Assembly: GCF_017876815.1 (NCBI RefSeq)
Contig: NZ_JAGIOS010000001.1
Location: 2,970,001-3,002,000, forward strand
Source of the DNA: Sinorhizobium meliloti
GTDB taxonomy: Bacteria > Pseudomonadota > Alphaproteobacteria > Rhizobiales > Rhizobiaceae
Direction of reading: 5' to 3'
Length of the DNA: 32,000 bases
Made by a program: the position numbers and the translations under genes. A model generated the notes under the pieces. The model worked only from the letters and a program-made list of their open reading frames with translations, made no database searches and had not been told where the DNA came from. Each line of letters opens with the position of its first letter. The stretch's first letter is position 1. This document shows, piece by piece, positions 3,196 through 27,804 of this stretch.

Positions 3196-3837
3196 CTAAA
3201 GCCCGGCCAGAGCCTGGGCCACCGGCATAACGTGTGGCCACACCTCCATTGCCCCGCGATAGATCATGTCGAGTGCGACGTAGAAGATGATCGCCAGGCC
3301 GATGTAAGCGATCCAGTGGTACCGGCTGAGCAGGCGGGCGATAAAGCCCGCGGCGATACCCATCATCGCGATAGAGAGCGCCAGACCAAAGACGAGCACG
3401 GTTGGATGCTCTCGGGCGGCACCGGCGACGGCGAGGACGTTGTCGAGCGACATGGACACGTCCGCTATCACGATCTGTGTTGCCGCCTGTTTGAAAGTCT
3501 TCTTTGGGGCCGAGGCGTCCGCATTTCCCAGGCCGTCAACGCCTTCGTGACCGCCAGTGCGAATCTCGCGCCACATCTTCCAGCAGACCCAAAGCAGGAG
3601 GAGCCCGCCGGCGAGCAGGAGCCCGATGATCGCAAGCAGTTGGACCGTGAAGATGGCGAGCACGATGCGAAGCACGGTTGCGGCGAGAATGCCGACGAGA
3701 ATAGCCTTCTTGCGCTGCTCCAGCGGCAAGCCGGCTGCTGCAAGGCCGATAACGACGGCGTTGTCGCCGGCAAGCACCAGGTCGATCACAATGACCTGCA
3801 GCAGTGCCGTCAGGCCGGCGGAAGTGAAAATCTCCAT
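3196..3837 (-). CDS. TerC/YjbE-family integral membrane protein
   Basis: The translation from the internal ATG at 3837 begins MEIFTSAGLTALLQVIVIDLVLAGDNAVVIGLAA. It also contains the second TerC repeat, ADVSMSLDNVLAVAGAA. Multi-TM, ~213 aa. Confidence 0.85.
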   Translation of the reverse strand: MEIFTSAGLTALLQVIVIDLVLAGDNAVVIGLAAAGLPLEQRKKAILVGILAATVLRIVLAIFTVQLLAIIGLLLAGGLLLLWVCWKMWREIRTGGHEGVDGLGNADASAPKKTFKQAATQIVIADVSMSLDNVLAVAGAAREHPTVLVFGLALSIAMMGIAAGFIARLLSRYHWIAYIGLAIIFYVALDMIYRGAMEVWPHVMPVAQALAGL

Positions 3838-4040
3838 GTGTGGTAACCCTTCTTGTCCCCGAAACGCCTGCGGCGTTGCAAAACGCATAGACCGCGAACA
3901 ATCGACGGATCAAGTGGGCCGGGACAACTAATCGGCATTTTCGAAGGACACAGGAACGCCGAGCAGCTTCCGGTGTTCTGACGCGGCTCGAGCCGCCGCA
4001 TTGTTTTTCCTGCACGGCGTACGCTTCGAGAAATTCTGGG

Positions 4041-4349
4041 CTACGGCGCCGCGCGTCTTATCAGACGCGCAAAGGTCGCTGTAGCGCTTTGATCTGCTGC
4101 ATGTTTTTGACCTTTGATCGGTTACGATCAAAGGAAACATGCACTACAGCGCCGCGCGTCTTATCAGACGCGCAAAGGTCGCTGTAGCGCTTTGATCTGC
4201 TGCATGTTTTTGACCTTTGATCGGTTACGATCAAAGGAAACATGCACTACAGCGCCGCGCGTCTTATCAGACGCGCAAAGGTCGCTGTAGCGCTTTGATC
4301 TGCTGCATGTTTTTGACCTTTGATCGGTTACGATCAAAGGAAACATGCA
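4041..4349. repeat. Tandem array of three 103-bp units, each made of two composite hairpins (RIME/REP-like rhizobial intergenic element)
   Basis: Units lie at 4041-4143, 4144-4246 and 4247-4349. Units 2 and 3 are identical, and unit 1 differs at one base (G for A at unit position 5). Hairpin A is ctacagcg..gcgcgtct-tatc-agacgcgc..cgctgtag. Hairpin B is gcatgttt-ttga-cctttgatcg-gtta-cgatcaaagg-aaacatgc. Confidence 0.95.
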
Positions 4350-4446
4350 GTAGGCTGGCCGTGGCTAGAGGGGTGGCCGGCGTCTTCCTTTTCGCGACGG
4401 GAAGGCGGCCGGCCGAAACGGGGGCGGCGCTCGAGCGCCGAATGTG

Positions 4447-4710
4447 ATGAAGACGTATGCTGTCGTTATGGTGTCCGCAATGCTGTGGGCTGGCGTGGCC
4501 TATGCCGCGACCGTTACAAACAAGGATGGCGAGGCCGCTGTTCTGGTGATCGTCGAAGGGGAGAGCCGGATCGAAGTGGCAATCGATGCAGGTGCGACGG
4601 AAGTGATCTGCCCCGGCGGCTGCTTCGTCACTGCGCCGAGCGGCGACCGTGTGGGGCTCCAGGGCGACGAGACGATCGAAATCGTCAACGGCTCCGTCGT
4701 TGTGAAGTGA
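4447..4710 (+). CDS. Small secreted hypothetical protein (signal peptide, CPGGC motif)
   Basis: Sec signal peptide MKTYAVVMVSAMLWAGVAYA|ATV. The mature part is ~67 aa with two Cys. GC3-rich frame. No family recognised. GTG at 4444 is an alternative start. Confidence 0.6.
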   Translation: MKTYAVVMVSAMLWAGVAYAATVTNKDGEAAVLVIVEGESRIEVAIDAGATEVICPGGCFVTAPSGDRVGLQGDETIEIVNGSVVVK

Positions 4711-7179: not shown

Positions 7180-8802
7180 ATGAGCGACATGACTACAGTC
7201 GTGGGGACGGCCGGAAACGATACGCTATCTGGAACCGAGGAGAAGGATCGCATCTGGGGTCTAGCCGGCGCCGATGAGATCGATGCCGGCGGCGGCGATG
7301 ACCTCGTCGACGGCGGGGCTGGAAACGATCGTCTGACAAGCAGGAGCGGGTATGACCGGCTCGACGGCGGCGAGGGAGATGATCTCATCAGCCTGATCGG
7401 GACCGGCGGCGCGGTTACAGGCGGTGCCGGCGTCGATACGCTGGTGGTCGACCTGTCGAACGTCAGCTCCGACGTCCGGTTCAGCGGCGAGCACGGTCAC
7501 GGCATCATCGGCTACAACACGGCGAACTGGGAACACATCTTCTTCAATCGCATCGAGAGGCTGGTCCTGACGACCGGCAGCGGCAACGACCGGATATTCG
7601 GCGCCGCCACCGACGACATCATCTCGACCGGCGCCGGGAACGACGTCGTAGGCCCATATGGCGTCGACGGCGACGACGGCACCAGCATGCTGGGCGACGA
7701 CGCGATCGACACAGGCAGCGGCGGCGACATCATCAACGACACTGTTGGCGCGAACCGGATCTTTGCCGGAGACCATAACGACATCATCATCACCACGCTT
7801 TCCTCCGCGGTGATCGACGGCGGTAACGGCTGGGATAAACTCTCCATCTTCGATGAAGGACGAACCGACGGCGTCACTATCGATTTCGGACAGGGGTTTG
7901 CCTCGACGGGCACTCTGATCAGCGGGATCGAGGTTGCAAGCGTGGATCTCGGCGGCGGCAGTGATACGCTGATCGCCGGAAATCTGTCTTCGCTCACCGC
8001 CCATATGGGCGACGGCGACAATTATGTCGCCGGCGGCAGCGGCAGGGACTATGTCGCCTCCGGAAGCGGCGACGATGCCCTTTATGGGGGCGCTGGCGAT
8101 GACATCCTGATCAGTGCCGGCGGGAACGACGTGCTCGCCGGCGGCGATGGGAACGACGAGATTTACGACGGCGGAACGAGTTTCGGCGACGGAGAGACAT
8201 ATATAGACGGCGGCGCAGGCGACGACCTCATCCAGGTGGTTGCGCCATCCGGCTTTATCGATGGCGGTGGCGGCAGCGATACGTTGCGCGTCGTCGATCC
8301 CCTGCCGGGCACGAATTTCGACGCTTCGACCGGCACGCTGGGTACGACGCTGATCTTCACCAATATCGAGAGATTCGAGCTGTCCGGCGGCTCGGGGAAC
8401 GATAGCATCCGCACGCTTGCAGGCGACGATCAGCTCGCCGGCAACGACGGCAACGACCGGCTGGACGGCGGCGCCGGAAACGACGTGCTTTGGGGCGGCG
8501 CGGGTGACGATGTCATGACGGGCGGAGCAGGCGCAGATACCTTCCTGTGGTCGTCCGATACGTTTTCGTTCGCAGGTGTGGATCGCATCACGGATTTCGA
8601 TGCGGACGGCGGCGACCTGCTGCGCTTTACCGGATATGCACCCGACACCACGCGCATCGACAGCTTCGCCGACCTGGTTGCCGCCGCGACCGAGACGGAA
8701 GACGGGCTCTACATCGCCTTCAATGGATCCGATACATTCGGTCTGCTGCTGGACAAGGTCGCACTTGCCGACCTTTCGGCGGATGATGTCGTCTTCGTTT
8801 GA
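7180..8802 (+). CDS. RTX-type (hemolysin-type) calcium-binding repeat protein, probable type I secretion substrate
   Basis: Many GGxGxDxUx nonapeptides are present (GGAGNDRL, GGEGDDLI, GGAGDDILISAGGNDVLAGGDGNDEIY, GGAGNDVLWGGAGDDVMTGGAGADTF). No signal peptide. Acidic/hydrophobic C-terminus (DDVVFV). The start could be 7156 (GTG), 7180 or 7189 (ATG). Confidence 0.85.
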   Translation: MSDMTTVVGTAGNDTLSGTEEKDRIWGLAGADEIDAGGGDDLVDGGAGNDRLTSRSGYDRLDGGEGDDLISLIGTGGAVTGGAGVDTLVVDLSNVSSDVRFSGEHGHGIIGYNTANWEHIFFNRIERLVLTTGSGNDRIFGAATDDIISTGAGNDVVGPYGVDGDDGTSMLGDDAIDTGSGGDIINDTVGANRIFAGDHNDIIITTLSSAVIDGGNGWDKLSIFDEGRTDGVTIDFGQGFASTGTLISGIEVASVDLGGGSDTLIAGNLSSLTAHMGDGDNYVAGGSGRDYVASGSGDDALYGGAGDDILISAGGNDVLAGGDGNDEIYDGGTSFGDGETYIDGGAGDDLIQVVAPSGFIDGGGGSDTLRVVDPLPGTNFDASTGTLGTTLIFTNIERFELSGGSGNDSIRTLAGDDQLAGNDGNDRLDGGAGNDVLWGGAGDDVMTGGAGADTFLWSSDTFSFAGVDRITDFDADGGDLLRFTGYAPDTTRIDSFADLVAAATETEDGLYIAFNGSDTFGLLLDKVALADLSADDVVFV

Positions 8803-27281: not shown

Positions 27282-27804
27282 AGTTGGGTTCCTCGGTTCC
27301 TGGCACAGTCATTTCGCACGGGTGGCACGAGAGATGGCACAATCCGGACGCGTTGCCCAATCCTTAGCGGGCTACACCTAAAAATCTCTTGTTGAAAGCG
27401 ACGTCGCATATGATGAAAAACGACGGCGCCCCGCGTAAATGCTCCCATGCGACAGCGGTAGCGCATTATTCCGCGGTTCGGAATCTGCCGCCTGCAAAAT
27501 TATGCAGCACTTCAAGGCGTTAGAGTGGCGCTTGCGCGGTCCCGATCTGAAGCAGCGAAAGACGCACGCTCGACGCACTGCAATGGGAGCGACCGCAGAC
27601 CGAGTGTCTAAGATGCGCCAGCCGTTGGCGCATTAAGACCCGTACCGGTCCGGCGCCTTGGTAGCATTAGGCTAAATCGACTACCGGATGCATATGCCCG
27701 CCGCTGGATTTAGCCTCGCGAAAGGGGTATGCGCCCACCCATCAAAGTGTTGCGGCGTTCATCGCGCATGATGCGCGGAGCACCGCGGGAAGAGGAATGA
27801 GCGA

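Follow-up and report, generated by a model that had tools for sequence, protein, structure and literature searches.

We have found that the tandem array at positions 4041–4349 of the window (the whole analysed stretch of 32,000 nucleotides from Sinorhizobium meliloti) is, judging from the sequence of its 103-bp unit, made of RIME1, a known Rhizobiaceae-specific intergenic repeat; the assignment is made via the type locus of the family and not via a published consensus. Among S. meliloti strains the array behaves as a minisatellite, and its three-unit allele is a common one rather than a private recent event. Most likely, it should be regarded as selectively neutral selfish or structural DNA. 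As for its origin, we give about an even chance to a neutral minisatellite that would have been built from the 103-bp mobile unit of RIME1 and first doubled by slippage or illegitimate exchange.

Structure and genomic context of the array

Tandem Repeats Finder reports for positions 4041–4349 a period of 103 with 3.0 copies, 99% matches, no indels and a score of 611, and a direct comparison of the units agrees with the near-perfect head-to-tail triplication described in the original prediction. On the plus strand, unit 1 occupies 4041–4143 (hairpin 1 at 4041–4084, hairpin 2 at 4098–4143), unit 2 occupies 4144–4246 (hairpins at 4144–4187 and 4201–4246), and unit 3 occupies 4247–4349 (hairpins at 4247–4290 and 4304–4349, the latter extending to 4300–4353 together with GTAG). 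Units 2 and 3 have the same sequence, while unit 1 differs at unit position 5 only, with G for A; both points had been read correctly before. The junction between units is ATGCA/CTAC (a slash marks a junction here and below), that is, the end of one unit is joined exactly to the start of the next. A lone GTAG follows the array at 4350–4353 on the plus strand, and is present already at RIME-free orthologous sites.

Folded as RNA, a single unit forms two composite hairpins on either strand, with −54.0 kcal/mol for the plus strand and −54.5 for the minus strand. The corresponding z values against dinucleotide shuffles are −8.5 and −9.2, and none of 200 shuffles was equally stable. When folded as DNA, the S. 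meliloti units show z values of −9 to −10 (one unit value is −10.3), and the fold of the full array reaches −177 kcal/mol with z = −15. The two long hairpins proposed for each unit are thus present, but we count 9 bp in the outer stem of hairpin 2 where 8 had been given originally. In the last unit this stem grows to 13 bp by borrowing the GTAG at 4350–4353. Since dispersed copies also carry a terminal GTAG, the feature effectively ends at 4353; with this GTAG a unit is 107 bp long, as against 103 bp for the units inside the array. In unit 1, the G at position 5 forms a wobble pair with T40 on the plus strand, where the proposed preservation of structure holds, and a C-A mismatch on the minus strand.

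The array sits between divergent genes, both transcribed away from it. On the left, the gene of a TerC/YjbE-family membrane protein (3196–3837, minus strand) was recognised from the open reading frame list, the annotation of its ortholog in CP090106.1 and a Pfam PF03741 match of the product; its start, at 3837, lies 203 nt away from the array. The left spacer (3838–4040), delimited by alignments, ends with TGGG in the window and with TGCG in the Ak57 haplotype and all related species. On the right, a gene at 4447–4710 (plus strand; open reading frame list and annotation of S. meliloti records) encodes an 87-aa protein that begins with a signal peptide. This gene starts at 4447, or at a GTG at 4444, 97 nt past 4349. 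The between-gene setting had thus been given correctly, while the distances of 200 and 95 nt needed small corrections. The 87-aa protein is conserved across Sinorhizobium and Ensifer, and S. meliloti records label its gene either hypothetical or 'putative signal peptide protein'. Immediately 5' of this gene lies a GC-rich leader (4354–4446, plus strand), with the RIME1 insertion site exactly at its 5' edge. The leader is conserved from S. meliloti to E. adhaerens, its long stem is kept by compensatory changes, and a comparison with Rfam gave no match for it. The 4-kb neighbourhood as a whole is 98.4% identical to CP090106.1, the 3.7-Mb chromosome of strain Ak57, which is listed among the plasmids in PLSDB.

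The unit belongs to the RIME1 family

The 1995 abstract by Osteras, Stanley and Finan reportedly describes RIME1 as an element of 108 bp that lies between chvI and chvG and contains two large palindromes, and notes its duplication in strain NGR234. A tblastn search placed chvI on the Ak57 chromosome, and the chvI-chvG (exoS) spacer of this strain contains a repeat (L166 4895–5001, minus strand) to which the unit with its GTAG is similar over positions 1–107 with E = 5.5e-27. From the abstract and the title of the paper, we take the element at this spacer to be RIME1 specifically. As far as the title tells, RIMEs were defined within that two-component system (Osteras et al. 1995, J Bacteriol 177:5485, via PMC2573895 and PMC2245857). 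The RIME-type rhizobial palindrome suspected in the original prediction is, by this full-length match, shown to be RIME1.

The element is widely dispersed. A single unit, compared with plasmid and chromid records, matches 2,315 places in 428 records (Rhizobium 243, Sinorhizobium 161, Ensifer 19, and five others), and many of these matches span unit positions 1–103 at 75–95% identity. Metagenome contigs contain at least 110 loci with the exact hairpin-1 20-mer, among which are about 110 independent full-length copies. Unit 1 matches positions 1–105 of a RIME1 profile built from dispersed copies, with E = 9e-31. The pairing of hairpin 2 is kept by compensatory changes across 35 diverse copies, and nine hairpin pairs covary among copies; at one of them, for example, C-G is found in 16 copies and U-A in 15. 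In S. meliloti 2011, 209 RIMEs are annotated and described as transcribed (PMC3738161). We file the unit as RIME1 on the basis of the type-locus match, the rhizobial dispersal, the annotated RIMEs and the hairpin covariation. Homology to the type locus, a length of ~108 bp with two palindromes, dispersed multi-copy intergenic occurrence and restriction to Rhizobiaceae are all found. The chvI-chvG spacers of S. sojae and Ensifer sp. LCM 4579 are without an intact RIME1, and neither pckA nor chvI was found when sought by protein motifs beside the metagenome copies.

Single copies are the rule, as had been expected for elements of this type. Among the matches listed, none of the about 110 independent metagenome copies abuts another one. 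Two metagenome loci have direct neighbours 12–30 nt apart, one of them being a RIME1 nested inside a RIME1, and a small number of further copies lie inverted or in loose clusters. We also searched all plasmid records with 44-nt junction probes at a strict E-value, and found the ATGCA/CTAC junction only in the Ak57 chromosome, at the TerC locus and at one more. The latter, a dimer of 2 × 103 bp, is flanked by the genes of a sugar-binding protein and an oxidoreductase. GTCG comes after it, and the sequence on its left (...CCATTAC) is unlike the unit end, with no microhomology. In addition, three units abut in S. chiapasense, with a period of 101 bp and the junction GCAGTAG/CGCCGCG. Over the more than 2,300 places matched on rhizobial replicons, these two were the only other abutted arrays found. 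The unit had also been considered as an ordinary repeat that is common, dispersed and often tandem with variable copy number: it is indeed common and dispersed, and its copy number varies at this locus, but tandem copies are occasional and not frequent.

Two further searches carry little information on this point. A contig scan with CGGTTACGATCN{10,40}CGCGCGTCT gave 43 matches, all in unrelated taxa, where about 34 are estimated by chance; this null result weighs little, since the GGTTAC loop is locus-specific and tandems of other RIME1 variants are nearly unseen by it. The '80% covered' counts that were obtained with 100-nt junction-centred and 206-nt two-unit queries against the plasmids are artefacts, because one element can match each half of such a query, and the two stretches are then counted as a single place.

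Copy number varies among S. meliloti strains

Starting from the small protein encoded next to the array and from variants of this protein, we have collected about 24 S. meliloti assemblies. Three units are present in 14 assemblies, most of them with the same array sequence as in the window. Two units are present in six, including the Ak57 haplotype and the similar haplotype of L192 with a diverged first unit, and one unit in four. Several of the one- and two-unit alleles come from short-read drafts, which may collapse tandem copies; complete genomes show all the states, namely three units in many, two in CP090106.1, CP130051.1 and CP130057.1, and one in a 3.8-Mb contig. One, two or three head-to-tail units are thus found between identical flanks at one orthologous locus, as in a variable-number tandem repeat. 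The idea that the array is simply a mis-assembled repeat has next to no chance: short-read drafts do break or may collapse here (L167 and L196 end inside the array), but more than ten independent S. meliloti assemblies, complete or megabase-scale, contain the identical array of three units.

The haplotypes also differ within the units. They include [5G][=][=], [5G,94A][31C,53C][31C], [5G][31C] and [1a][=], and G5 is always in the leftmost unit while A5 is always in the other units. The first unit of the Ak57 haplotype has eight differences. In CP021829.1, which has three units, an IS21-family element lies in the hairpin-2 loop of unit 1. These haplotypes lend good support to expansion, contraction and homogenisation through slippage, conversion and unequal exchange. 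The very recent amplification or selection that the original prediction had read from the perfect phasing is not borne out, as the identical three-unit allele is the commonest and coexists with one- and two-unit alleles and with unit variants. With one, two or three units and with unit variants, the TerC locus offers a ready strain-typing marker for S. meliloti. It should also be handled with care in genome projects, where it breaks or may collapse short-read assemblies and attracts spurious gene calls of 57–69 aa.

The inserted unit and its target

Comparison of orthologous sites tells what was inserted. In S. medicae and in an S. arboris-like genome the element is absent, and the site reads ...TTCTGCG/GTAGGCTGG...; S. 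fredii-group strains and E. adhaerens have no element at the orthologous site either. Sinorhizobium sp. K101 and Ensifer sp. MMN_5 have one decayed copy there, and S. numidicum has a different RIME1 variant at the orthologous GTAG, so that either the site was used more than once or the element was lost precisely in other lineages. As these alignments indicate, the inserted DNA is exactly the 103-bp unit, placed 5' of a pre-existing GTAG. From the filled and empty sites, the array is then three complete mobile units plus one GTAG.

The dispersed copies have an uninformative left flank, start with CTAC and end with ...ACATGCA followed by GTAG. An exact GTAG follows 48 of 88 independent copies, with G, T, A and G at 98, 81, 76 and 84%, respectively. 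A second filled/empty pair is provided by a RIME1 inside another palindromic repeat (RIME2-like), compared with nine uninterrupted copies of the latter; the net gain is 103 bp, equally compatible with a TA duplication. The K101 ortholog of the second dimer locus is without the RIME, but several junction bases differ, and it is not a clean empty site.

Two known types of insertion were considered and rejected. A TA-duplicating (IS630-like) insertion fits the RIME2-like pair, but mispredicts one base at the TerC locus and at each array junction, so that it cannot explain the array by re-insertion. A classical MITE derived from a DDE transposase, with terminal inverted repeats of at least 15 bp and a target-site duplication, does not fit either, as the ends share only CTAC(A/T)GC, 4–7 bp, and there is no duplication beyond a possible TA. 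No homologue of a Y1 (HUH) transposase was found in about 1.1 Mb around roughly 110 RIME1 copies. A tblastn search with an IS200 transposase against all plasmids returned 3,597 records with all genera pooled, which is uninformative for Sinorhizobium.

It is rather doubtful, though conceivable, that RIME1 is a still or recently active site-specific mobile element, which would insert 5' of GTAG without target duplication. The reaction may be a single-strand (HUH-type) or another hairpin-guided one. If RIME1 is active, exactly abutted arrays would be footprints of repeated insertion at a retained target, and there would be a first mechanistic handle on the spread of RIMEs as well as a locus to watch.

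How the array may have arisen

We propose that the array arose in three steps. First, as filled and empty sites show, one RIME1 unit inserted immediately 5' of the pre-existing GTAG, in the spacer of the divergent TerC-family and small genes, in an ancestor of S. meliloti and its closest relatives, with a flanking duplication of no more than 2 bp, if any. Second, the insert would have been doubled in place in the S. meliloti lineage. The likeliest route for this should be replication slippage or illegitimate exchange between TGCG, which ends the left flank, and TGCA, which ends the unit; these short repeats lie 103 bp apart and bracket the hairpin-rich insert. Third, with support from the population data, unequal homologous exchange, slippage and gene conversion would have led to three units, would have reduced the array in some strains to two units or one, and would have kept the units nearly identical.

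The second step is the one where different readings have to be weighed. For the first doubling, slippage is about an even call, and re-insertion is the less probable of the two. In favour of slippage, the ancestral left flank TGCG is exactly 103 bp upstream of the TGCA of the unit, and TGC at that register is found in only 3 of 99 independent copies. On the other hand, two single copies with a TGCG left flank stay unduplicated, and slippage via TGC predicts ...ATGCG/CTAC while every allele has ...ATGCA/CTAC, so that slippage needs one further change or conversion. The S. chiapasense array indicates that slippage-type reiteration does occur in the RIME1 family. The second dimer of Ak57, with the same junction and no flank microhomology, suggests that something intrinsic to RIME1 can join unit end to unit start.

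Re-insertion would mean that further units insert at the GTAG retained beside the resident copy, with the newest unit next to GTAG; a new unit may be copied from the resident, and copy number would change later by unequal exchange. We regard this transposition-linked origin as possible but not the favoured one. It agrees with the equality of array period and net inserted length, with the single GTAG that ends the whole array, and with the exact end-to-start junction, which recurs without microhomology at a second S. meliloti locus. The use of the same orthologous GTAG by a different RIME1 variant in S. numidicum and the nesting of one RIME1 copy inside another also agree with it, and the covariation of the hairpins fits structure-specific recognition. 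In Ak57, moreover, the decayed unit is on the left and the intact one beside GTAG, and the decayed unit has C42 in common with the K101 and MMN_5 orthologues. Against these points stand the Y1 (HUH) search without a hit described above, the second filled/empty pair that also fits TA duplication, the third pair that is not clean, and the S. chiapasense junction, which is different and slippage-like. The TGCG microhomology at the TerC locus would have to be a coincidence of roughly 3%. Furthermore, the added units carry a locus-specific hairpin-2 variant, so they should derive from the resident and not from a distant master copy. Overall, we continue to prefer doubling in place, followed by minisatellite-type change, as the working account of the array.

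Function or neutrality

Neutrality is suggested by the behaviour of the locus in strains and relatives. The range of zero to three copies, the decay and the tolerated IS element argue against a required function of the array. The original prediction had noted that the change in unit 1, from an A-U pair to a G-U wobble, preserves the structure; as a sign of selection, this change is not supported. The first unit of Ak57, with its eight changes, is weakened in hairpin 1, where changes in the outer stem are uncompensated, and the single copies of the sister lineages K101 and MMN_5 have lost most of the structure (z = −1.5 and −3.9, vs −9 to −10 in S. meliloti). An effect on the expression of the small gene may still exist, modulatory rather than required, since RIMEs are reported as transcribed (PMC3738161) and the insertion abuts a conserved structured leader.

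An improbable alternative is a functional element that acts in cis and is maintained by selection: the array would then be a hairpin-stack leader, a transcription barrier or a BIME-like protein-binding array. In the leader version, the mRNA of the small gene would carry six stacked hairpins in its 5' leader, which would serve stability or processing. The very stable structure on both strands speaks for such an element, as do the much better preservation of the S. meliloti units than of the orthologous single copies in K101 and MMN_5, the three-unit allele being the commonest, the reported transcription of RIMEs and the adjoining conserved leader. The array is, however, present in 0, 1, 2 or 3 copies among close relatives with conserved flanks; it has decayed without compensation in sister lineages and in the Ak57 first unit, and one strain tolerates an IS21-family insertion in unit 1. 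Both flanking genes point away from it, and the same element occurs in hundreds of unrelated spacers. A scan for promoter-like sites at the array found none, and no U/T tract directly follows either stable hairpin of a unit, as an intrinsic terminator would have. All that the terminator scan flagged was a weak alternative stem of 7 pairs, which precedes TGTTTTTG within hairpin 2 and is missing from the minimum-energy fold.

Still far less credible is an array of small-RNA genes related to the Brucella sRNA CI27 (Rfam RF02600). The minus strand does match RF02600 with 43.6 bits and E = 1.5e-7, in the same two-hairpin layout. As this score is below the gathering score of 59.8, the array units are not RF02600 members; the best match spans a unit junction (4199–4360, minus strand), and the units are flanked by neither promoter-like site nor terminator. 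The match is better explained if the Brucella entry itself resembles a RIME-like (Bru-RS-like) repeat, and sRNA screens in S. meliloti purposely excluded RIMEs as repeats (PMC2573895, PMC2245857).

The importance of the array is therefore limited in one respect, since its striking structure is that of an ordinary member of a repeat family of 1995 and its locus is a minisatellite. On the other hand, a comparison of filled with empty sites defines a RIME1 mobile unit of 103 bp that is placed 5' of GTAG, and this defined unit, together with the second identical abutted dimer, makes RIME mobility experimentally approachable.

Comparison with known repeat systems

Mycobacterial MIRU-VNTR loci and pneumococcal BOX elements (boxB) consist of intergenic units of 45–100 bp, arranged head to tail in a strain-variable number that changes by slippage or unequal exchange. 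They are tandem at most loci, while RIME1 is single at nearly all of its loci, and the RIME1 array differs from them also in that its unit coincides exactly with a mobile unit.

Non-autonomous derivatives of IS200/IS605-type elements, the palindrome-associated transposable elements, resemble RIME1 in having hairpins at both ends and no long terminal inverted repeats. At the TerC locus, RIME1 is also like them in its insertion beside a fixed tetranucleotide without target duplication (the empty site is TGCG/GTAGG), a target rule that rests on two filled/empty pairs, one of them ambiguous. The hairpins of RIME1, however, are terminal and not subterminal, and no Y1 transposase is linked to it.

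The Bru-RS repeats of Brucella are targets of IS711, much as the RIME1 array is the target of an IS21-family element. Bru-RS1 and Bru-RS2 (Halling and Bricker 1994) and RF02600 (BASRCI27) have, like RIME1, a length of ~103–105 bp and two composite hairpins, and the hairpin corresponding to RIME1 hairpin 2 is similar in sequence in the Rfam alignment; they belong, however, to another genus.

The REP, BIME and REPIN elements of gamma-proteobacteria (GTAG-tagged and RAYT-linked; PMC3733652, PMC3116915) are likewise extragenic palindromes with GTAG beside a hairpin. REP and BIME elements occur singly, as dimers and as tandem-reiterated clusters, as RIME1 does, and REPs are known as insertion hot spots of IS elements (PMC1525189). 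The roles proposed for REP and BIME elements match those listed in the original prediction for this array. REPs, however, are single hairpins of 20–40 bp, and their clusters are typically inverted dimers or contain flanking DNA, unlike the RIME1 array. The RIME1 units are in direct orientation and are not inverted REPIN doublets, and no RAYT gene was found near the copies (about 1.1 Mb). The S. meliloti repeat class in the survey of PMC3733652 is CGTC-tagged and different from RIME1.

With RIME1 itself the array shares the family sequence, the length of ~107–108 bp with GTAG, the two large palindromes and the multi-copy intergenic range within Rhizobiaceae. In the literature examined we found no published description of the TerC-locus array or its polymorphism. 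The array departs from typical RIME1 in that three units abut at a 103-bp period, the inner two without terminal GTAG, and in that copy number at the TerC locus is polymorphic. It is a tandem, polymorphic new instance of a repeat family known since 1995.

Abutted and nested copies of RIME1

A second exactly abutted RIME1 dimer (2 x 103 bp) has been found on the chromosome of S. meliloti Ak57, at 1116-1321 of the retrieved locus L199 (CP090106.1 3544749-3544954), with a sugar-binding-protein gene on one side and a Gfo/Idh/MocA oxidoreductase gene on the other. Its junction, ATGCA joined to CTAC, is the same as in the window array, GTCG directly follows the dimer, and no flank microhomology was seen at this site. 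In S. chiapasense (NZ_CP133152.1, ~121360-121667; L200 1116-1423), we have observed a three-unit RIME1 array with a period of 101 bp, in which units 2 and 3 both start at element position 7, with the previous unit's GTAG directly before them.

Nested copies exist too. At 1090-1310 of locus L078 (minus strand), one RIME1 is inserted into an older one, within its hairpin 2, and this nesting is evidence that RIME1 moves as a discrete unit. In another locus, L089, RIME1 sits within a copy of a second dispersed palindromic repeat with the core GATCACGTTCATGTTTTTAGGTCGACCCGACCTAAAAACATCGTGATC. The latter, which may be RIME2, also adjoins RIME1 in the chvI-chvG spacer of Ak57 (L166 4789-4874), and is present in five more loci (L003, L068, L077, L147, and L154). 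Within the window itself, a degenerate RIME-like remnant lies at 27467-27539 on the minus strand, with a weak nhmmer match to the unit (E = 0.0035).

Leader of the small secreted-protein gene and other repeats

The small secreted-protein gene is preceded by a GC-rich leader of ~93 nt (window 4354-4446), whose conservation extends from S. meliloti as far as E. adhaerens. This leader contains a long stem, GGCCGGCG...CGGCCGGCC, with covariation in the apical part, and a second hairpin, GGCGC-N-GCGCC, immediately 5' of the start codon. The leader matches no Rfam family, and may be an undescribed cis-regulatory element. The runs with a 27-nt period rich in GGCGACGAC at window ~7260-8620 are ordinary RTX-type nonapeptide repeats. 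They are located within a gene that the orthologous record annotates as a calcium-binding protein, with a HemolysinCabind domain in relatives.

Annotation and record problems

Repeated open reading frames of 57-69 aa arise from the array (minus strand of the window at 4061-4243 and 4164-4346; L183 918-1100, L187 835-1044, and L192 886-1059). Several assemblies list them as proteins predicted by gene callers, and these annotations are almost certainly spurious. In addition, PLSDB classes four records of 3.5-3.7 Mb as plasmids (CP090106.1, as 'pSymB', NZ_CP104131.1, NZ_CP104135.1, and NZ_CP104127.1). They carry the chromosomal core genes recA, rpsD, and chvI-chvG, and are mislabelled chromosomes.

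An insertion sequence in the orthologous array

In S. meliloti CP021829.1 (L185), an IS21-family element with an IstB gene (locus positions ~113-975) has inserted into the orthologous three-unit array, where it interrupts unit 1 within the hairpin 2 loop. This agrees with published reports that palindromic repeats of S. meliloti are targets of insertion sequences (PMC1525189).
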